Part shown: piece by piece, positions 19,352 to 53,965 of the stretch
Layout: every line of letters begins with the position of its first letter
How positions within the stretch are numbered: the first letter of the stretch is position 1
Assembly (NCBI GenBank): GCA_016432625.1
Contig: CP066697.1
Coordinates: forward strand, 151,113 to 215,112
DNA length: 64,000 bases
Direction: 5' to 3'
Origin: Candidatus Berkelbacteria bacterium
Lineage (GTDB): Bacteria > Patescibacteriota > UBA1384 > 2-12-FULL-50-11
Program-made: the position numbers and the translations under genes
The notes under the pieces: generated by a model
Told to the model about the DNA's origin: nothing
The model's input: the letters and a program-made list of their open reading frames with translations, nothing else
The model's database searches: none

Positions 19352-19957
19352 TTAGCGTTGCAGATTGCGGAGTTGCTCGTACAGATCACGTTCTTCGCGT
19401 GAGGGGCGCTTGGGGATTTCAATATGGATAACAACCGTCAAATCTCCCCGACCGCGGCGAGTTTGGGCGCCTTTGCCACGAAAACGAAAAGCCGCGCCTT
19501 CGGGTGTGCCGGGTGGAATCTTCAGCTCGATCTCATCGCCAAAATTGGTTTTGAAACGAACCGTGTCGCCAAGCACCGCTTGCGGGATCGAAACTGCCAA
19601 TTGAACCTGGACTTGAGAGAAGGCTGATTCGAACAAATCCTCAAAAATTGAGCCAAAACCTCCGCCGCCCTGACCACTAAAACTGCTGAAGTCGAAACCC
19701 CCAGCTTGACTCCCGAAACCGCTTTGGCTGCCAAAACCGGCTCCGGCCCGTGCCCCAGCGTGGCCGAACTGATCGTACTGGGCTCGTTTGTTTTTATCCC
19801 CCAGTACCTGGTAGGCCTCGTTTATTTCCTGGAACGCCGCCTTATCCCCACCTTTGTCGGGATGTAATTTGTGCGCTTTCGAACGGTAGGCCTTTTTAAT
19901 TTCGCCATCGCTGGCACCGCGGGGAACACCTAAAACTTCGTAAAAATCTCGAGCCAT
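19352..19957 (-). CDS. J-domain co-chaperone (DnaJ-like; J-domain plus Gly/Phe-rich region plus C-terminal domain, no zinc-finger)
   Basis: [35 protein letters not shown] with the HPD motif, then a GFGSQ-rich linker. Confidence 0.8.
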
Positions 19958-19982
19958 ATTTTCGATATTTTACCCTAAAAAT

Positions 19983-20000
19983 GTCAAGTTTGCTTTACAG
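19983..20000. promoter_or_regulatory. Copy of the 18-bp inverted repeat TGTCAAG-TTTG-CTTTACA (2 mismatches to TGTAAAG-N4-CTTTACA) in the divergent intergenic region between the J-domain gene and the ybjQ-like gene; overlaps a TTGACA -35-like hexamer (minus orientation) and sits just upstream of a TATAAT at 20001-20006
   Basis: Read directly: ...aaatgTCAAGtttgCTTTACAgagTATAATgaattcATG. Same half-sites as the dnaK promoter (26102-26119) and the XRE-Hsp20 gene promoter (51618-51635). Confidence 0.55.
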
Positions 20001-20014
20001 AGTATAATGAATTC

Positions 20015-20338
20015 ATGGATAAGGAAAATATTACAACCTCTTTTGAGCTACCGAATAAGAAAATTGTTAAAAATTTCGGCCTAGTCCGCGGCATAACCGT
20101 TCGCTCCCGATCGATTTTTGGGACAATCGGCGGCTCGCTGCAGACCATTCTTGGCGGCAATATCACCCTGTTTACCGAGCTGTGTGAGAAAACGCGCCAG
20201 GAAGCCTATGCCCTGATGGTCAAACACGCGGAAGAGATGGGCGCCAACGGCATTGTTATGGTTCGCTATGACGCCAACGAAGTTATGAGCGGTGTAACCG
20301 AAGTGCTCTGCTACGGCAGTGCAGTGGAGGTTGAATAA
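20015..20338 (+). CDS. YbjQ/UPF0145 family protein (heavy-metal-binding-like domain)
   Basis: 107 aa ending GANGIVMVRYDANEVMSGVTEVLCYGSAVEVE, the characteristic YbjQ C-terminal pattern. ATG only ~6 nt downstream of TATAAT, so possibly a leaderless transcript. Confidence 0.7.
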   Translation: MDKENITTSFELPNKKIVKNFGLVRGITVRSRSIFGTIGGSLQTILGGNITLFTELCEKTRQEAYALMVKHAEEMGANGIVMVRYDANEVMSGVTEVLCYGSAVEVE

Positions 20339-24000: not shown

Positions 24001-26004
24001 TTAGTCTTTTTTGTCCCCGTCATCTTTTGGTTCTTCCGGCACATTTGTGTCCGGGGTGCCATCCGCCTTCGCCGAGGCTTCGTCGGATGAATCGTCTTTG
24101 GGGAGTTCTTCTTCCGGCTTCGGCTGTCCCTCCTGCGCTGAAGCTTCCTCCTTCGCAGATGCTTCGGAGGACGAGTCGGCGGGCGAGTCATACATCGCGG
24201 CGCCGACTTTTTGGAGGGCGGCACTCAATTTTTCCGCCTCCTCTTTGATTTTGTCTTTATCGTCGTTGTGGATGACGGCTTTGACGGCGGTAACGGCGTC
24301 TTCGACTTCGCGTTTGTCGTCCGGTTTGATCTTATCGCCCGCGTCTTTGAGGGTTTTTTCGCTCAAGTGAATAAGGTTTTCGGCGGCGTTTCGTTCTTCG
24401 ACCAGCTCTTTTTTCTTGGCGTCGTCGGCGGCGTGAGCCTCGGCCTCGGTTTTCATCTTTTCGATCTCTTCTTTGGATAGCCCACTCGAAGCCGTAATGG
24501 TGATGTGTTGTTCTTTGGAAGTGGCTTTGTCTTTGGCTTTGACGTTCAGAATTCCGTTTGCGTCGATGTCAAACGTCACCTCAACTTGCGGGACGCCGCG
24601 GGGAGCCGGTGGAATACCATCGAGATGGAACTTACCTAGCGTCCGGTTGTCGGAGGCCATTGGCCTTTCGCCTTGTAAGACGTGGATTTCCACAGATGGC
24701 TGGTTGTCGCTGGCCGTGGAAAACGTTTCCGTTTTTGAAGCGGGAATAGTGGTATTGCGCTCAATGAGCGGCGTCATTACTCCACCCAGAGTTTCGAGAC
24801 CCAAGGTTAGCGGGGTGACGTCGAGCAGAAGAATATCCTTAACTTCGCCTGATAAGACGCCGCCGTTAATGGCCGCGCCTAAAGCAACCGCTTCGTCGGG
24901 GTTAACGCCTTTCGATGGCTCTTTGCCAAAAACATCTTTAACAACTTGCTGAATCATCGGCATGCGGGTCATCCCACCGACCAAGATAACTTCGTCAATG
25001 TCAGATTTGGTGAGTTTGGCGTCTTTCAAAGCGGCTTCGCAGATGCCTCGGGTTTTCTTGATGAGGTCGCCAACTAAACTTTCCAATTTTGCGCGCGACA
25101 GATTCATCTGCAGGTTTTTTGGACCGTCAGCGTCAGCGGTAATAAACGGCAAGTTGATCTCGGCTTCCTGGGTTTGAGAGAGCTCGATCTTGGCTTTTTC
25201 AGCTGCTTCTTTGACCCGTTGCATAGCCATAGCGTCGCCAGTTAGATCGACACCCTCTTTGGCTTTGAATTCGTCGACGATCCAGTTCATCACTTGAATG
25301 TCGATGTCGTCTCCACCGAGGTGAGTATCACCGTTCGTCGAGAGCACTTCGAAGCTGGATTCGCCTTTGTCTTCGCCAATTTCGATGATGGTGATATCAA
25401 ATGTTCCACCACCAAAGTCGTAAACGGCGACTTTCTGGTCTTTTTTGTCTTCTTTGTTAATGCCGTAGGCGAGAGCCGCGGCGGTTGGTTCGTTGATAAT
25501 GCGCTTAACTTCGAGGCCAGCAATGGTGCCGGCGTCTTTGGTAGCCTGGCGCTGGGAGTCGTTAAAGTATGCCGGGACGGTAATAACAGCGCCGTCGACT
25601 TTTTCGCCGAGATAAGCCTCGGCATCAGCTTTGATTTTGGCCAGGATCATTGAGGAGATTTCTTGGGGGGTAGACTCGTTTTCGGCCATTTTGACCTTAA
25701 CGCCATCGCCGCTCTTTACAATTTTGTAAGGCATCAGTTTGATGTCGCGCTGAACTTCTTCGTCAGTGAAGCTACGACCCATTAAGCGTTTAACAGAGTA
25801 GATAGTATTTTCCGGATTGGTGACAGCTTGGCGCTTGGCGAGCGTGCCAACAAGGCGTTCGCCTTTTTTATTGACCGCGACGATGGACGGCACTAAGTTG
25901 CCGCCCTCAGCGGTTGGGATCATTTTGGCTTTACCGCTTTCGATGACGGCTGAAGCCGAGTTAGTTGTTCCCAGGTCAATTCCGATTATCTTAGACATTT
26001 GCAC
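24001..26004 (-). CDS. dnaK: Chaperone DnaK (Hsp70)
   Basis: [18 protein letters not shown], the substrate-binding domain, and an acidic/Lys-rich C-terminal tail. GTG start at 26004 (an ATG two codons in is possible). Confidence 0.95.
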
Positions 26005-26095
26005 CCCATTCTATGTCTGAGATATCCAAAACGGTGTTTTTGATAATCTTTCCCATTTTGAGTAAGCTCTCCTCCTTAATTAGTCTATGTCTAAA

Positions 26096-26127
26096 GAAAA
26101 TTGTAAAGTTTCCTTTACATTTGTCAA
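26096..26127 (-). promoter_or_regulatory. dnaK promoter: TTGACA(-35)-N16-TACAAT(-10), with the 18-bp inverted repeat TGTAAAG-GAAA-CTTTACA (26102..26119) occupying the spacer and -10
   Basis: Gene orientation: cATTGACAaaTGTAAAGgaaaCTTTACAATtttc. Perfect 7-bp arms. Not CIRCE (TTAGCACTC-N9-GAGTGCTAA) and not HAIR (CTTGAGT-N7-ACTCAAG). Confidence 0.6.
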
Positions 26128-27681: not shown

Positions 27682-28218
27682 TTACCCCTTTGAAACGCGG
27701 ACTTTGGCCGGTTTTATTACTTTGCCCTTAAGCATCCAGCCGGATTCAATTTCATCGATGACGGTTTCTGCTGGCAGGTCGCACGCTTCGTAGGAGATTG
27801 CTTCGTGCAAGTTATGATCGAAATGCGCCCCTTGGGTCGGAATGCGCGTCAGGCCGGCGTCGGCGACGATCGTTTCGAGCTGTTTTTCGATTTGGCGTAA
27901 ACCTTCAAAATAGGCGTGAATCTTTTGAAAAGCCTCTTCGCTTAAGGTTGTTTGGTCGTCGTCAAGTGAAATTGTCGGGGCGTGGGTTGAAGCGCGGTAG
28001 AAATTGTCCAGTACAGGGAAGAGTTTATGCAGCCAGTGGGCTAACGTCCGTTCCTCGAGCACGGCTCGGTCGTCGTGCATGCGCCGTTCTAGGTTAGAGT
28101 AATCCGCCGCCAAGCGTTTGCGACTGTTTTCGGCAGTTTCAAGTTTGGTCTTAATCTCGGCCAATTCTTTTTTGAGCTTATCGATTTCGTTGTCGTTTAA
28201 TTTCTTTTTAGGAGTCAT
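27682..28218 (-). CDS. grpE: Nucleotide exchange factor GrpE
   Basis: N-terminal coiled-coil (EIDKLKKELAEIKTKLE) and C-terminal FDHNLHEAISYE...GWMLKGKVIKPAKVRV, typical of GrpE. Confidence 0.85.
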   Translation of the reverse strand: MTPKKKLNDNEIDKLKKELAEIKTKLETAENSRKRLAADYSNLERRMHDDRAVLEERTLAHWLHKLFPVLDNFYRASTHAPTISLDDDQTTLSEEAFQKIHAYFEGLRQIEKQLETIVADAGLTRIPTQGAHFDHNLHEAISYEACDLPAETVIDEIESGWMLKGKVIKPAKVRVSKG

Positions 28219-46409: not shown

Positions 46410-47192
46410 ATGGAAGTAATGAAACTCAGGCGGTTACTGGCTTTAACTGTCGGGCGCAATCTGCTTATTGCCGCGGTTTTTGCGTCGGTTGGCGTCGTGC
46501 TACTCTTGACCGCTCCCAAGGAGAAACCTGTACAGGCCCAAGTTGGTGGGCAATACAGCGCCAATTGGGAAGCGACCCACCTACTTATCGCTCGCTTGGT
46601 TCAACCTGACCTGTTAACTAAACAGAAGTGTGAAACCGTGAACTCAGTGACTCGCCCTTACGGTGAGCCCGCTAACTCGGAAGTGGCCATCGGCCCGTCC
46701 CGCTGGGAGGTAAGAGGTCAGATGGATGACGGCTCTCGGTTTAAAGAAATCTGGACCACGGCCCAGATCCCTGCTCGGATCACTTACGGTGAGGGAACCT
46801 GGTACACGAACTGGTTTTTCAACGGTTACTGCAGTACACCTGGCTTAAAGTTAAAGATTATGGGTAACCAGAACCAGGAAGACTGGATCATCGGCTTCAT
46901 GCAGGACAGAAGCCTAGGAATGTCGGCGATGGAATTTCGGACAATCGGTGTCAACGACGCGATGACTAATACTAGTAACTATCCTGATGGTAACGTACGG
47001 AACATCAGTAAAACGACTTCTTGCCAACGAACAAACCGCTGTGTCTTTACAACCGGTCCGTATGCCTGGACGACTTTCCACGAAATCGACCAAGCTACCG
47101 AAAGTAAGTACGAGAATGTCGGAACCTTAATACCTGCTCACTGGGATGTGAGGGGTACGTTATGTCCTGTGGGGGATAACCGTTGTGATTAA
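46410..47192 (+). CDS. Secreted Cys-containing protein, paralog 1 of 3 (novel family)
   Basis: Signal peptide. Shares with the two downstream ORFs the motifs W(E/T)V(R/K)G, FKE(I/V)W(T/S)..Q(I/L)P, TTSCQ, HEID and the C-terminal GD(N/T)RCD. Six conserved Cys. Confidence 0.6.
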   Translation: MEVMKLRRLLALTVGRNLLIAAVFASVGVVLLLTAPKEKPVQAQVGGQYSANWEATHLLIARLVQPDLLTKQKCETVNSVTRPYGEPANSEVAIGPSRWEVRGQMDDGSRFKEIWTTAQIPARITYGEGTWYTNWFFNGYCSTPGLKLKIMGNQNQEDWIIGFMQDRSLGMSAMEFRTIGVNDAMTNTSNYPDGNVRNISKTTSCQRTNRCVFTTGPYAWTTFHEIDQATESKYENVGTLIPAHWDVRGTLCPVGDNRCD

Positions 47193-47469
47193 TATGACGC
47201 CGCAAAAGTTTTCGAACGCAGTTTTGGCCTTGAGCGTGCTAGTTTTGCTTTTGGGTATCTCAACATATTGGCAAAGTAACGCGGAGCCAAATCTTGACTC
47301 AAAGACCTCGGTTACAGAGCGGGACGCCGCACTTTCGAGAGCTAGAATCGGCGACGGCACGTATAGTTTCTCAACTAGCTTCATCCCAGGGCTTGGCTAC
47401 ATCGGCTCTGCCGAGCAGACCAGACAAAAATTTAAGCAAGATAATAAAGGAGCGATAACCAACCAATGA
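47185..47469 (+). CDS. Small secreted hypothetical protein between paralogs 1 and 2
   Basis: 94 aa with an N-terminal signal-like hydrophobic segment. Confidence 0.35.
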   Translation: MINMTPQKFSNAVLALSVLVLLLGISTYWQSNAEPNLDSKTSVTERDAALSRARIGDGTYSFSTSFIPGLGYIGSAEQTRQKFKQDNKGAITNQ

Positions 47470-48170
47470 AGCGTGCTGCTAGTCTGTCCGTCATATTGCT
47501 AGGGATACTAGGTTTAGTTCTGGTTAATTCGCAACAAGTGAGCGCTCAAAGTAGCGACTACACAACCAAGTGGGACGCAAATAGTCTAATCGTTGGGACG
47601 TTGCACCGCCCGATTACTGGTAACTCCGAGGGCGATTGCGTTAATGGCACGCTTCTTGGTAATTACGGCGACCCGGCCGGATCAGAAATCGCCTTCGGTA
47701 TTAATCAGTGGACCGTCAAGGGGCGTATCACTGGCTCGACAAAATTTAAAGAAGTCTGGTCGGCACCGCAGTTGCCTTATGCTTACACCTACGGCGGCAC
47801 TTGGAATGGCAGCTGCCAAAACCTTAAGCTAATTGTCTCCGGCAACAACAGCATGACTGATTGGCTGATGGGCTACATTTCTAATGAAACATATACGCGG
47901 AGCGTAATGGCTTTTCGCTCAGTTGGTATCTCGCAAGGTATCAATAATAAGGTTAACGTCGACGTTTCTCGGGCTGACAACATCGGCAAAACGACGTCAT
48001 GCCAACGCCAGAACAACTGTTTGTATGCCACTGGCGGCTATGGCTGGACGGCTGCGCACGAAATCGATGACGCCCATGCCTGGAAGCCGATCAATGTTGG
48101 TATATTAATGCCTCTCAAGTGGACGATCAGTGGTGATATCTGCGACGGTGGAGACACTAGATGCGATTAA
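47466..48170 (+). CDS. Secreted Cys-containing protein, paralog 2 of 3
   Basis: Signal peptide (LSVILLGILGLVLVNSQQVSAQS). Same conserved motifs and Cys spacing as paralogs 1 and 3. Confidence 0.6.
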   Translation: MKRAASLSVILLGILGLVLVNSQQVSAQSSDYTTKWDANSLIVGTLHRPITGNSEGDCVNGTLLGNYGDPAGSEIAFGINQWTVKGRITGSTKFKEVWSAPQLPYAYTYGGTWNGSCQNLKLIVSGNNSMTDWLMGYISNETYTRSVMAFRSVGISQGINNKVNVDVSRADNIGKTTSCQRQNNCLYATGGYGWTAAHEIDDAHAWKPINVGILMPLKWTISGDICDGGDTRCD

Positions 48171-48901
48171 AAATCATGGCTAATAGATTAGGCATTTTGA
48201 GGGTCTTGGTGGCGGTGCTAGTCCTTTTGGTGGGGTCAATCTTAGTCGGCGACGTGCCGGCCGTAGCACAAGCCAGTGACTACACAATCAACTGGCAAGC
48301 CACTGATCTAATCGTCGCCCGACTTAAGAAACCGAATTACGCACATAACCAGGCGGAGTGCACAACTTGGCGGCTTGACCCCCTTGGTACTCCCATCGAT
48401 TCTGAAGTGGCTATAGGTGTCCATAAGTGGACTGTCAGAGGCGAGCTTCCAGGCTCAGCAAGATTCAAAGAAATCTGGAGCACTCCCGCATTACCGAGAG
48501 CTTTCACATACACAGGTGATTTCATCAATGGCGAATGTCGAAACGGTCGCTTGATTATCGATGGCTTGGCAGGTCCTAACGACTGGCTGACCGGATATCT
48601 CAATGTAAGTAACCTTGGAGTCTCAGCCATGGAAATAAGAACGGTGGGTGTCACAACTGAGGTCGGACATCACAATCTAGACCCAGGCAGTGTTCGCAAC
48701 ATCGGCAATACTACATCATGTCAGGCGAGTGGGGGCGATACTGATCGCTGTACCTACACGACCGGTGCTTATAGTTGGCTCACTCTCCACAGGTTTCAGT
48801 CGGGAATGGATAAGAAGCACATGAATCTCGGTACGATGATCCCGCTCAAATGGTCTGTCAGCGGTACCTTCTGTGAACCTGGCGACAATCGCTGCGACTA
48901 A
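48161..48901 (+). CDS. Secreted Cys-containing protein, paralog 3 of 3
   Basis: Signal peptide. Conserved motifs. Ends GDNRCD like paralog 1. Confidence 0.6.
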   Translation: MRLKIMANRLGILRVLVAVLVLLVGSILVGDVPAVAQASDYTINWQATDLIVARLKKPNYAHNQAECTTWRLDPLGTPIDSEVAIGVHKWTVRGELPGSARFKEIWSTPALPRAFTYTGDFINGECRNGRLIIDGLAGPNDWLTGYLNVSNLGVSAMEIRTVGVTTEVGHHNLDPGSVRNIGNTTSCQASGGDTDRCTYTTGAYSWLTLHRFQSGMDKKHMNLGTMIPLKWSVSGTFCEPGDNRCD

Positions 48902-50852: not shown

Positions 50853-50881
50853 ACAAAAAAGCGCCGTAGCGGCGCCTTTTG
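50853..50881 (-). terminator. Strong rho-independent terminator for the XRE-Hsp20 gene (GGCGCCGCTACGGCGC followed by TTTTTTGTTTTG on the - strand); bidirectional potential
   Basis: Palindrome GCGCCG-TAG-CGGCGC flanked by an A-run (+ strand) and a T-run. Confidence 0.65.
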
Positions 50882-50900: not shown

Positions 50901-51605
50901 CTACTTCTTCTTCACCTGAATCTTCGTGGTCTTCGGCTTAGCCGGTTCCACTTTCGGCGCCACTATCTTAAGCGTCCCGTTTTCGAGTTTGGCCTCAACC
51001 TTGTCTTCTTTGATCGGCGTGGCAAATCGAATTGAACGACTGAACTCACTGTGTTGCCACTCACGACGCACAACATTCTTGCCTTCTTTCTCATTTTCGT
51101 CGTGCTTTTTAGTGCCAGTGATAGTTAGTGTATCTTCCGTCATCTCGATCTGAACATCGTCTTCGGCGTAACCCGGAACCTGTAATTCGATTTCGTACTC
51201 TTTGTCGGTTTCATGAATATTCATGGCGCCGGCAACGGTGCCCAGTGCTCGCGACCAATCACCACGACCAAAATTACGGTTGACCATCTCGCTCATCTCT
51301 TCTTGCATTCGATCCATTGCCTGAAACGGACTCCATGGTGCTAATTGCATCTTCGACTGCTCACCTCCTTCCTGAATTTCGTTATCGGTTGCTTGCTGAA
51401 CAATGTTTATGCCTTCGATTAAATCCGGCAAATTACAGCGGAAAAATTCCATCAGTGAAATCAAAACTGGCGCGCTAGGCAGATACTCGCCACGTTCAAG
51501 CGAGATTATCGATTGGCGAGATACGTTTAATTCCCGAGCCAATTCTTCTTGGCTCAGATCTCGCTGGGTGCGTAACTGGCGTAGTAATAAACGGAATCGA
51601 GGCAT
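50901..51605 (-). CDS. Fusion protein: N-terminal XRE-family helix-turn-helix DNA-binding domain plus C-terminal Hsp20/alpha-crystallin (small heat-shock protein) domain; candidate novel heat-shock transcriptional repressor
   Basis: N-term LRQLRTQRDLSQEELARELNVSRQSIISLERGEYLPSAPVLISLMEFF (HTH_XRE). C-term ALGTVAGAMNIHETDKEYEIELQVPGYAEDDVQIEMTEDTLTITGTKKHDE...EWQHSEFSRSIRF...GTLKIVAPK (alpha-crystallin domain). Same operator in its own, dnaK and J-domain-gene promoters. Confidence 0.75.
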   Translation of the reverse strand: MPRFRLLLRQLRTQRDLSQEELARELNVSRQSIISLERGEYLPSAPVLISLMEFFRCNLPDLIEGINIVQQATDNEIQEGGEQSKMQLAPWSPFQAMDRMQEEMSEMVNRNFGRGDWSRALGTVAGAMNIHETDKEYEIELQVPGYAEDDVQIEMTEDTLTITGTKKHDENEKEGKNVVRREWQHSEFSRSIRFATPIKEDKVEAKLENGTLKIVAPKVEPAKPKTTKIQVKKK

Positions 51606-51611
51606 TTATAC

Positions 51612-51650
51612 GCCTAATGTAAAGTAAACTTTACATAGCGTCAAGGGAAA
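51612..51650 (-). promoter_or_regulatory. Promoter of the XRE-Hsp20 gene: TTGACG(-35)-N17-TACATT(-10), with the 18-bp inverted repeat TGTAAAG-TTTA-CTTTACA (51618..51635) over the spacer and -10
   Basis: Gene orientation: cCTTGACGctaTGTAAAGtttaCTTTACATTaggcgtataaATG. Same architecture as the dnaK promoter. Confidence 0.6.
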
Positions 51651-51655
51651 GGTTT

Positions 51656-52852
51656 TTACTCAAACCGCAAAGCGTCGACGGGATTTTTACGGGCGGCGCG
51701 AATTGCCGGGAAAAGGCCAAAGACAATACCAGCAAAAGCGCCCATTCCAACGGCTAACATGATTGTTTGCCAGCTCATAACGGGATTAAGCGGGGAGAAT
51801 CTAGCGATTAGTAGCGTCGAGATACGCGCTAAGCCAATGCCGATCAAAGAGCCAAAGAGGGTCAACAGTATTGCTTCGATCAGAAATTGCAACAAGATTG
51901 CACTTTCGGTAGCGCCAACGGCCTTTCGAATACCGATCTCTCGCGTCCGCTCTGTCACAGTGACGAGCATGATATTGGAGATGCCTATTCCGCCGACAAG
52001 CAGGGAGATAGAGGCAATTCCAACCACGAGATAAGCCATGACGTCGGTAATTTGATTGACCGTCGAAAGCAGATCGGTCGGCTTAAAGACTGAAAAGTCA
52101 CTCGTACCGTGTTTCGCGGTAAGCAGGCTTTTAACCTCCGCTATCGCCGGGTCAACGTCTTCAACCGTTTTGGCTTTGACGACAATGCGGTTAACGGCTT
52201 CTGATTTATTAATCTCGGTGGCGACGCTCGCCGGAACCAAAAACATATCGCCGGTCGTAGAAGTGAGATTCAATTCTTGGTCAATTTTGAATAAGCCCAC
52301 AACCTCAAAAGTTGACGCCCCAATTTTGACGCTATCGCCAACTTTAACGCTTATTTGTTCAGCTGACTTCTCGCTTAAGACGATTACCCTGTTCTTATTG
52401 GTAAGGTCGTTGTCGTTGATACTGCGGCCACCGACTATCTTGACGCTGAATAAATCTTCCGCGCCAGGCGTTATACCAACTGGCAGGCCGTTCAGCTTCT
52501 TGTCGTTGTGGTTAACGAGTCCGCCAAAGAAGACGGCGTACTCCATGTCTGGATCAAGTAATTTAGATTTGTCTTGCAAGTGCGTCACATCGTCAACGAA
52601 AATCGTTGACGGTGCCGTTATGCCAGAGATACTCGGCGCCCCTTCTTCAGCTTGTTCGCCCGGCATAATCAGGATCGTCCGTGGCCCAAAGTCCTCAACG
52701 AAGCCGGCAATTTGTTTCTGTACGCCACGGGCGGCCGAAAGCAACGTCACCACGGCGTAGATGCCGATAACGATGCCAAGCACCGTCAGGAAGCTACGCA
52801 GTTTATTGGCCCAGAGTGAGCCGATGGCGCTCCGTAAGCTGTCAAGCAGCAT
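51656..52852 (-). CDS. ABC transporter permease, FtsX/MacB family
   Basis: N-terminal TM, large extracytoplasmic MacB_PCD-like domain, C-terminal FtsX domain (three TM helices). Confidence 0.8.
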   Translation of the reverse strand: MLLDSLRSAIGSLWANKLRSFLTVLGIVIGIYAVVTLLSAARGVQKQIAGFVEDFGPRTILIMPGEQAEEGAPSISGITAPSTIFVDDVTHLQDKSKLLDPDMEYAVFFGGLVNHNDKKLNGLPVGITPGAEDLFSVKIVGGRSINDNDLTNKNRVIVLSEKSAEQISVKVGDSVKIGASTFEVVGLFKIDQELNLTSTTGDMFLVPASVATEINKSEAVNRIVVKAKTVEDVDPAIAEVKSLLTAKHGTSDFSVFKPTDLLSTVNQITDVMAYLVVGIASISLLVGGIGISNIMLVTVTERTREIGIRKAVGATESAILLQFLIEAILLTLFGSLIGIGLARISTLLIARFSPLNPVMSWQTIMLAVGMGAFAGIVFGLFPAIRAARKNPVDALRFE

Positions 52853-53578: not shown

Positions 53579-53965
53579 TGGTGGACCTGCCGGGAGTTGA
53601 ACCCGGGTCCGAGAACCTACGAACGAAGACGTCTACAAGCGTAGAAAGTTTAAAGTCTTAGCAGCTGGGCTTGAGAGCTTTCAAAAAACCCGACTGAGCA
53701 ACATCTTATTCTGAGGAGTTGTACCGATGTGCGCACAATCCCGGTTCTACTTTTTGACGCCTCGTTACCTTAGTAGAAGTCAGGTGACGAAACGGCATTG
53801 GCCGTTAGGCTAATGCTGTTGCAAAAGAAGGAGTCGCGAACAAGTTCGCAACACGAGCTTTTGCAGTTTCAAATGCGTTTGCACGTATTTGTTTTGCGCT
53901 CTAAGGCAGGCGCGTCCGCTTGCAGTCCTCGCTGTAAACGTTCCCGTCGAAGCCAGTACAGGCCC
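53579..53965 (-). ncRNA. ssrA: tmRNA (ssrA)
   Basis: The - strand 5' end is GGGCCTGTACTGGCTTCGACGGG (tRNA-Ala-like acceptor with G3·U70 wobble plus the conserved UUCGACGGG box). The 3' end is GGACCCGGGTTCAACTCCCGGCAGGTCCACCA (T-arm plus acceptor plus encoded CCA). Internal reading frame ...GCA ACA GCA TTA GCC TAA (tag ending ATALA*). Confidence 0.8.

Follow-up and report, generated by a model that had tools for sequence, protein, structure and literature searches.

A 64,000-nucleotide stretch of the genome of a Candidatus Berkelbacteria bacterium (assembly GCA_016432625.1, contig CP066697.1, positions 151,113–215,112), referred to below as the window, carries at positions 50901–51605 of the reverse strand a gene whose product joins a helix–turn–helix (HTH) domain of the XRE/Cro-C1 family to a small heat-shock protein (sHSP). 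This HTH–sHSP fusion gene probably encodes an autoregulated repressor of a heat-shock (proteostasis) regulon in Berkelbacteria and related Patescibacteria. Its promoter contains a palindromic operator, TGTAAAG-N4-CTTTACA, which is also found in the promoters of chaperone genes, both in the window and in relatives, and its coding region holds conserved signals for a second, sHSP-only product. Bacterial heat-shock control is explained by a few systems, namely sigma-32, HrcA, HspR, CtsR and RheA. The candidate phyla radiation (CPR) makes up a large share of bacterial diversity, and no description of an HTH–Hsp20 regulator or of CPR heat-shock control was found in the literature, in which subscription journals were thinly covered; a fusion-type heat-shock repressor is very probably undescribed so far. 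The finding supplies a candidate regulator, its operator and a regulon conserved across many Berkelbacteria-type genomes.

A preliminary description of this DNA, made from the letters, had proposed such a repressor. The proposal is supported as far as sequence analysis reaches, the checks on artefact, conservation and motif all being favourable. Beyond that description, the present analysis contributes the regulon, the range of lineages that carry the fusion, a relative of the HTH domain that has been studied experimentally (CylR2), the use of the same operator by small XRE regulators, and a predicted two-isoform design with a conserved internal start and a near-leaderless long form.

Architecture and distribution of the fusion protein

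The gene is a single uninterrupted reading frame of 234 aa (stop codon included in the coordinates), in which Pfam finds both domains, so that the joining of an XRE HTH to a complete Hsp20 in one product, as first described, holds. HTH_3 (PF01381) covers residues 8–62 (E 9.8e-15, 54.8 bits against a cut-off of 23), roughly as in the preliminary description (about 5–60), and HSP20 (PF00011) covers residues 130–231 (E 8.1e-21, 74.5 bits against a cut-off of 20.8), which is further C-terminal than the limits of about 110–215 given there. NCBIfam returned sub-threshold likeness only, to named sHSPs and XRE regulators.

All parts of the gene are read on the reverse strand. The HTH domain (51420–51584), seen by Pfam and in an AlphaFold2 (AF2) model, is CylR2-like by its PDB sequence matches. 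It is followed by a linker, residues 63–85 (51351–51419), that is predicted to be disordered and differs in length and sequence among homologues, except for a ‘GGE-xx-M’ patch. The sHSP N-terminal region, residues 86–129 (51219–51350), can be aligned with the same region of PDB sHSPs such as Hsp21, and the α-crystallin domain (ACD) with its C-terminal extension occupies residues 130–231 (50913–51218). The extension ends in an I-x-V motif, I229-Q-V231 (50913–50921), of which I229 and V231 are near-invariant among the fusion homologues; the C-terminal I-x-V motif is the anchor of sHSP oligomers. The AF2 monomer model, built on a 69-sequence alignment, comprises a five-helix HTH domain with a short two-stranded sheet (predicted local distance difference test, pLDDT, about 90 for residues 11–60), a disordered stretch at residues 69–90 (pLDDT <50), a helix at residues 93–112 within the sHSP N-terminal region, and a confident ACD β-sandwich (pLDDT 82–87). 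The top Foldseek matches of the ACD are SpHsp16.0, MjHsp16.5 and wheat Hsp16.9, with a probability of 1.00 to sHSP structures; no PDB entry spanning both fusion domains was found by Foldseek (TM-score on query ≤0.37). Conservation is marked in both parts. In the HTH domain, residues S18, Q19, R30, Q31 and S32 are invariant in the 69 aligned sequences. In the sHSP part, variation is absent or minimal in the hallmarks A-x-L-x-x-G-x-L (towards the end of the ACD), P217-K218 and the C-terminal I-x-V; judged by its residues, this part has all the features that mark a functional small heat-shock protein.

Two protein searches, the first with the window protein as the query and the second with a relative from a second clade, found HTH_3 together with HSP20 in 233 of 240 homologue clusters among the matches listed. 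Identity to the window protein is 44–100% in the first search and about 30–36% for the aligned members of the second clade. All named homologues are assigned to Berkelbacteria, ‘Patescibacteria group’, Saccharimonadales or an unclassified ‘bacterium’. They are annotated merely as ‘Hsp20 family protein’, none being filed as a regulator, and an identical protein has been deposited under the same name from a Candidatus Berkelbacteria metagenome-assembled genome (768,791-bp contig). Such entries, some of them with a wrong start, call for a correction of the annotation.

Seven database entries of 147–179 aa hold the HSP20 part alone, which would suit the view that HTH and sHSP are separate genes, joined through an error of assembly, reading frame or annotation. 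The entries inspected (P0099, P0100, P0104 and others) were rejected as stand-alone sHSP orthologues, since they derive from continuous fusion ORFs (open reading frames), either begun at an internal start or shortened where a contig ends: P0104 corresponds to 828–1277 of locus L139, within a continuous 233-aa ORF at 576–1277, and P0100 matches the C-terminal part of P0016 without a difference. An unbroken ORF is present in 233 independently assembled clusters (NCBI, JGI, ENA and Logan). The chance of an artefact is consequently minute; a frameshift or assembly error was rejected, and the preliminary description was right to treat the two domains as one gene. Public gene calls at the internal Met produce ‘HSP20-only’ entries of 147–152 aa, in which the HTH domain is hidden.

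The fusion gene is monocistronic, with its own promoter and its own intrinsic terminator at 50856–50880 (reverse strand; an 11-pair stem followed by a T run in a terminator scan). The gene order in relatives is conserved as ABC ATPase, MacB/FtsX permease, fusion gene and cyclophilin. A full-length tmRNA gene (53579–53965, reverse strand; Rfam RF00023, 118.6 bits) lies immediately before the ABC-transporter genes located upstream of the fusion gene. Three tandem paralogues of about 235–260 aa are located at 46410–47192, 47466–48170 and 48161–48901 (forward strand); they share an N-terminal hydrophobic segment and the motifs FKEIW, TTSCQ and a C-terminal GD(N/T)RCD.

The operator and its regulon

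The fusion gene is preceded by a sigma-70-type promoter, TTGACG-17-TACATT (51616–51644, reverse strand), and a motif scan confirmed the perfect 18-bp inverted repeat noted earlier at 51618–51635, TGTAAAGTAAACTTTACA (TGTAAAG-TAAA-CTTTACA). Another perfect copy, also reported earlier, lies at 26102–26119 in the dnaK promoter, TTGACA-16-TACAAT (26100–26127, reverse strand); dnaK itself (24001–26004, reverse strand) encodes a protein 91% identical to database DnaK entries. An independent promoter scan of both genes agreed with the placing of the repeat over the −35/−10 spacer and the −10 box: the right half-site is the −10 box and the remainder of the repeat fills the spacer. Since the palindrome fills this spacer and supplies the −10 box (TACAwT), a bound protein would exclude RNA polymerase. 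The centres of the half-sites are 11 bp apart, which places both half-sites on one face of the helix and is the geometry that would be expected for a dimeric HTH protein binding a palindrome.

The third site in the window, at 19982–19999, is located between two divergent genes, one for a short DnaJ-like co-chaperone (19352–19957, reverse strand; 201 aa, Pfam DnaJ and part of DnaJ_C) and one of the ybjQ family (20015–20338, forward strand; Pfam YbjQ_1). Its location is that of the preliminary description, and its mismatches number one, a TGTCAAG half-site, and not two as stated there. It overlaps the −35 box and spacer of the ybjQ promoter, ATGTCA-16-TATAAT (19981–20008, forward strand). At up to two mismatches, TGTAAAG-N4-CTTTACA occurs three times in the window versus 0.14 times expected, and none of 100 shuffles reached three. 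By the position of its operator, dnaK would be a regulated target of the predicted fusion repressor, and the dnaJ-like and ybjQ-family genes are probable targets.

The operator is conserved in relatives. Ten orthologues of the fusion gene (L001–L007 and L137–L139) were fetched by protein similarity alone (identity 60–80% where reported; the contig search with the single window protein yielded 8 relevant loci). A perfect TGTAAAG-N4-CTTTACA precedes all ten in the same geometry, that is, TTGAC, 3–5 nt, the palindrome and TACATT as the −10 box, and the DNA around it has diverged. In L001–L007, it is the sole site with up to two mismatches in each 13–21-kb locus. The presence of the operator before every fusion gene examined is a signature of autoregulation.

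The dnaK loci of relatives were found by a search with the window DnaK, and six of them (L131–L136) share their contig or genome with a fusion gene; a record shared by dnaK and the fusion was confirmed directly for JALHMV010000001.1. In all six, a perfect operator lies within a TTGACA promoter before dnaK. Five of them (L131, L132, L134, L135 and L136) have a site with 0–2 mismatches in or adjoining the upstream region of the dnaJ-like gene, and L135 and L136 have a perfect site between divergent ybjQ and dnaJ-like genes. The dnaK leader of the window (about 26005–26070, reverse strand) contains a 21-codon upstream ORF, the first five codons of which correspond to the dnaK start of relatives (MGKII) and the stop of which overlaps the ATG of MSKIIGID. 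The relatives L131–L136 possess a simple dnaK leader of 45–55 nt with GGAGG and no upstream ORF. The leader ORF looks like a partial tandem duplication of the 5′ end of dnaK or an assembly quirk.

A scan of JGI metagenome contigs with the pattern TTGAC-N(3–5)-TGTAAAG-N4-CTTTACA gave at least 122 sites in at least 120 stretches, and the genes immediately 3′ of the 122 sites listed were counted. An HTH–sHSP fusion follows at least 19 sites, dnaK at least 16, groES at least 10, grpE (usually as grpE–dnaK) at least five, and clpP and a ClpB/C-type AAA+ gene at least one each. Operons of a small membrane protein and/or a 65–80-aa XRE protein follow at least 43 sites, a parB-like gene of one streptococcus-like organism at least 12 and glutamate dehydrogenase at least one; at no fewer than 14 sites the downstream gene is unclear. 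Chaperone and fusion promoters share the operator consensus cTTGACAAAATGTAAAG-N4-CTTTACAwT. Short dnaJ-like genes homologous to that at 19352–19957 of the window are preceded by further perfect sites in L011, whose DnaK is a deposited Berkelbacteria protein, and in L106. In metagenomes, the motif thus precedes dnaK, grpE, groES, clpB/C, clpP and short dnaJ-like genes; it is far from randomly placed. Several metagenome contigs have the operator before grpE–dnaK operons, unlike the grpE gene of the window.

Two groups of matches were set aside as unrelated or unexplained. Twelve streptococcus-like contigs (L015, L016, L019, L027, L055, L068, L073, L089, L091, L109, L114 and L117) have the pattern 29 nt upstream of a parB/spo0J-like gene (in L089 the sequence stops short of the gene); these sites may be chance matches or may belong to a resident CylR2-like regulator. 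In L108, an operator-bearing promoter precedes a gene for a 418-aa Glu/Leu/Phe/Val dehydrogenase (Pfam); the match may be due to chance, or the gene may belong to the regulon in that lineage.

The operators of two known heat-shock repressors were not found, as the preliminary description had stated for the window. The controlling inverted repeat of chaperone expression (CIRCE; TTAGCACTC-N9-GAGTGCTAA) has no match in the window at up to three mismatches, nor at up to four in the 890 kb of window and loci, including more than 30 chaperone loci. The HspR-associated inverted repeat (HAIR; CTTGAGT-N7-ACTCAAG) has no match in the window at up to two mismatches. Seven HAIR-like matches with two mismatches occur in the loci, either in parB-type or other contigs or kilobases away from the motif-bearing promoter, and none is at the chaperone promoters found, so that control of these promoters through CIRCE or HAIR was rejected. 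Among the genes called within ±10 kb of dnaK in six syntenic relatives (5.7 kb upstream in L135, to the contig end), the part of these genomes that was searched, none has an HrcA or MerR-type Pfam match.

The HTH domain is linked to the motif through its relatives. The closest solved structures in the PDB sequence search (E 2e-8 to 1e-5) are 9k3w, an uncharacterised 65-aa PbsX-family regulator, followed by CylR2 (2xiu/1utx; E 4e-7 for 2xiu). The recognition helix SRQ[ST]I..[IL]E.G.Y.PS is common to the fusion HTH, CylR2 and the small XRE proteins behind the same operator, and no other HTH of the CylR2-like type is present in the 64-kb window. These XRE proteins of 65–80 aa sit behind an identical N4 operator in their own operons in metagenome contigs, and the operons often consist of a DUF2178-type membrane protein (Pfam) and the XRE protein; operons of this composition are, from their gene content, a CylR1/CylR2-like family. 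In such loci (L021, L036, L056, L077, L085, L087, L093, L103, L127 and L128), the operator is often present in two copies about 20–40 bp apart (exactly 21 bp in several), one with a TGTCAAG half-site.

In vitro binding of CylR2 to the cytolysin PL promoter has been reported (PMC3709268). In the E. faecalis cyl plasmid NZ_CP124896.1, the repeat TGTCAAG-TGTCA-CTTGACA (L141, 1166–1184) lies between cylL-L and cylR1/cylR2; its half-site TGTCAAG is one base off TGTAAAG and identical to the variant half-site at 19982 of the window. The scan found no N4 motif in the cyl locus, the related repeat there having an N5 spacer. The fusion gene shares with the small XRE operons the operator type and the inverted TGT[A/C]AAG half-sites, with a spacing 1 bp off that of CylR2. 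It does not have the CylR2-like form of a stand-alone protein of about 66 aa co-transcribed with a membrane protein: the product is 234 aa long and fused, and the neighbouring genes encode an ABC transporter and a cyclophilin.

An internal start and a predicted second product

An internal Shine–Dalgarno (SD) sequence, AAGGAGGTGA, is located inside the coding region at 51361–51370 (reverse strand), upstream of an internal ATG at 51348–51350 that encodes Met86 and is the predicted start of a 149-aa sHSP-only product. The conserved ‘GGE-xx-M’ patch of the linker is, at the DNA level, this SD sequence followed by the ATG, at the ancestral sHSP start. The internal SD and ATG are kept in L001–L007 and in 14 of 14 diverse, more distant metagenome fusions; the latter retain AAGGAG or GGAGG 4–10 nt before the ATG, though the residues encoded differ (K-E, R-E or G-G). 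The free energy of the duplex of the internal SD with the anti-SD is −8.2 to −18.9 kcal/mol, compared with a background mean of −3.9 over all in-frame positions of the same fusion genes, 9.5% of which reach −8. Met86 is conserved in at least 90% of the 69 aligned sequences, and gene callers start some database entries at this residue.

The first ATG of the window gene stands 10 nt after the −10 box and has no SD, so that the long product would be translated from a leaderless or near-leaderless mRNA. In most fusions, the first ATG likewise lies 7–13 nt after the −10 box and lacks an SD. An SD-less first ATG combined with a conserved internal SD and ATG points to two products. It is quite likely that one mRNA gives two predicted proteins, the full-length HTH–sHSP from the near-leaderless AUG and the 149-aa sHSP from Met86, and the short form would be able to co-assemble with the long one. 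Starts without an SD seem common across the window, where a 4-mer SD core was counted within 20 nt of the first ATG in 11 of 44 long ORFs (a crude count), and several −10 boxes end 6–10 nt before an ATG, as in the ybjQ promoter (19981–20008, ATG at 20015). An RNA thermometer hiding the internal SD was considered and rejected: the fold of the surrounding 111-nt region is no more stable than those of its shuffled versions (z = +0.55), and the Rfam matches in the window are all tRNAs or a tmRNA.

Proposed regulation, alternatives and known systems

A repressor role of the fusion protein is likely. In the mechanism proposed, a dimer of the CylR2-like HTH domains would bind TGTAAAG-N4-CTTTACA in sigma-70-type promoters, with the sHSP part supplying dimerisation and oligomerisation and acting as the sensor. 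Within the window, the repressor would act on its own gene, on dnaK and on the dnaJ-like/ybjQ pair, and in relatives also on grpE, groES(–groEL), clpB/C and clpP. Under heat or proteotoxic stress, the sHSP part would be drawn into sHSP–substrate assemblies and/or the oligomers would fall apart, the HTH pair would then leave the operators and the regulon would be derepressed; clearance of the substrates by DnaK and ClpB would free the repressor, which would rebind. Operator binding, repression, stress sensing and the making of both products are what we infer from the observations given above. Sensing by client titration, suggested by analogy, is a realistic possibility with somewhat less than an even chance. 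More tentatively still, the one gene may be a complete proteostasis homeostat, in which little HTH–sHSP is made from the near-leaderless AUG and much plain sHSP from the strong internal SD; the two would form mixed assemblies that unfolded proteins sequester or heat dissociates, taking HTH pairs off the operators at dnaK, dnaJ, grpE, groESL, clpB, clpP and the gene itself. If this were true, the chaperone pool would, in a physical sense, be both sensor and transcription factor for the entire heat-shock response, and a CPR lineage may have replaced HrcA/CIRCE with the fusion (hrcA and rpoH were not searched genome-wide).

The operator might be bound by another XRE regulator encoded elsewhere in the genome, the fusion gene being a mere member of the regulon and its HTH doing something else. 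The identical motif does precede operons of small stand-alone XRE proteins in many contigs, and a related genome encodes a 68-aa XRE protein near dnaK (L132, 14163–14369). This protein was nevertheless rejected as an alternative regulator, as its recognition helix is of another kind and its own promoter lacks the operator. The invariant HTH residues, the SRQ[ST]I helix shared with CylR2 and with the proteins behind the motif, the lack of a second CylR2-like HTH in the window and the signature of autoregulation all speak for the fusion protein as the ligand of its operator, and a different XRE regulator is improbable. Even less probable is that the palindrome is the extended promoter of a specialised (heat-shock) sigma factor, or that the fusion protein activates transcription, or is a chaperone tethered to DNA that regulates nothing. 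The motif is always found in a promoter-like context with a highly conserved −35 region (TTGACAAAA), although the metagenome pattern demanded TTGAC by design. A perfect 7+7 inverted repeat points to a dimeric binding protein, however, and the promoter hexamers fit the sigma-70 consensus. The palindrome also occurs in other registers, over the −35 box at 19982–19999 and as tandem pairs 21 bp apart in small-XRE operons, and a repeat of near-identical half-sites is present in the cylR/cylL region, where the repressor CylR2 is reported to bind (PMC3709268). A site over the spacer and −10 box is in the classical position for repression, not activation.

With the fusion protein taken as a repressor, its sensing might instead be intrinsic: oligomers would hold two or more HTH domains when cool, and warming would convert them into dimers, largely of one long and one short chain with a single HTH, so that bivalent binding would be lost without clients. 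Oligomers of sHSPs such as wheat Hsp16.9 and yeast Hsp26 dissociate into dimers with temperature, and sHSPs of this type are structural neighbours of the fusion's ACD. Short members that lack the N-terminal region keep the ACD and I-x-V, and L037 (201 aa, the short member examined) still carries the operator, which indicates that oligomerisation is the conserved role; an abundant short isoform, as predicted, would favour heterodimers. Most members, on the other hand, keep the full N-terminal region, the main substrate-binding part of sHSPs, and the oligomeric state is not predictable from a monomer model. Intrinsic thermosensing is rather unlikely as the explanation, although the sequence does not separate it from client titration; the two are not exclusive of each other and can coexist.

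Several points weigh against an autoregulated heat-shock repressor of the kind proposed. DNA binding, repression and heat induction are predictions for all members, and the organisms are uncultivated. The window grpE (27682–28218, reverse strand) has no operator upstream, and the window contains no groES, groEL, clpB or clpP, so that targets of these kinds were seen in relatives. As small XRE regulators use the same operator type, a second regulator outside the 64-kb window is possible. Neither the sHSP N-terminal region nor the internal Met is present in deep-branching short members (179–222 aa, some named Saccharimonadales), so titration through the N-terminal region is not a universal mechanism. 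The internal SD core of the window gene is separated from the ATG by 13 nt, as against 10 nt in the nearest relatives; 13 nt is towards the upper limit of functional spacings. It is also hard to see how feedback would work if the short form were to heterodimerise with the long one. The window grpE is parted from dnaK by two ORFs on the other strand.

The combination of an XRE HTH with HSP20 lies outside the known heat-shock regulators, as the preliminary description had claimed: by Pfam and NCBIfam it is unlike their families, including CtsR, RheA and sigma-32, and the fusion protein has no HrcA match (Pfam, NCBIfam) and no MerR match (Pfam). In the HrcA/CIRCE–GroEL and HspR/HAIR–DnaK systems, repressor activity is tied to the free chaperone pool in a homeostatic feedback (e.g., PMC7464140, PMC8533110). 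As in these systems, the palindromic operator of the fusion overlaps the promoters of dnaK, of groESL operons and of its own gene. Its XRE HTH is unrelated to the winged helix of HrcA and the MerR-type domain of HspR, and the chaperone, which is a separate, non-covalent partner of HrcA and HspR, is here part of the same polypeptide. By its domains and its operator, the fusion protein is a member of neither system and its likeness to them is functional only; by descent, its DNA-binding domain appears CylR2-like and its C-terminal part a canonical sHSP.

CylR2, the repressor of the Enterococcus faecalis cytolysin (PDB 1UTX, 2XIU), has the same recognition helix, VSRQ[ST]I..[IL]E.G.Y.PS. It is a stand-alone protein of 66 aa without a chaperone domain, whereas the fusion HTH is joined to an sHSP; it is controlled via the membrane protein CylR1 and a quorum signal, regulates a toxin operon and not chaperones, and its repeat has an N5 spacer in place of N4. 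Canonical sHSPs (S. pombe Hsp16.0, wheat Hsp16.9, M. jannaschii Hsp16.5 and plant Hsp21) have an N-terminal region, ACD and I-x-V as in the fusion and are its best sequence and fold matches, but none has a DNA-binding domain. RheA of Streptomyces albus is an autoregulated repressor of hsp18 and a proposed direct temperature sensor. Compared by description, it resembles the fusion in being an autoregulated repressor tied to an sHSP gene; it is, however, a separate protein, encoded divergently from hsp18, and controls only hsp18 and itself.

ClpB-93/79, IF2 alpha/beta and the long and short forms of CheA are pairs of in-frame products made via an internal start. As predicted for the fusion, an internal SD and AUG yield in these cases an N-terminally truncated product able to co-assemble with the long form. 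The extra N-terminal part of the fusion differs in being a transcription-factor domain, so that the long form would regulate its own gene. E. coli IbpA is an sHSP that acts as an aggregation sensor: it represses the translation of ibpA, ibpB and rpoH, and its sequestration on aggregated proteins relieves the repression of heat-shock genes (PMC10410725, PMC10474464, 10.1101/2020.04.20.050740). The use of an sHSP as the sensor is what IbpA has in common with the role proposed for the fusion. IbpA acts post-transcriptionally, binding 5′ untranslated regions of mRNA through the sHSP itself; it has no dedicated nucleic-acid-binding domain, DNA operator or direct chaperone regulon, whereas the fusion has an HTH domain. 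In CPR metagenomes, stress genes could be recognised by an operator of this kind. Known systems divide the roles of sensor chaperone and repressor between separate proteins; the fusion would unite them in one polypeptide, probably made as two isoforms from a single gene, which would be an economical way of building a feedback loop.

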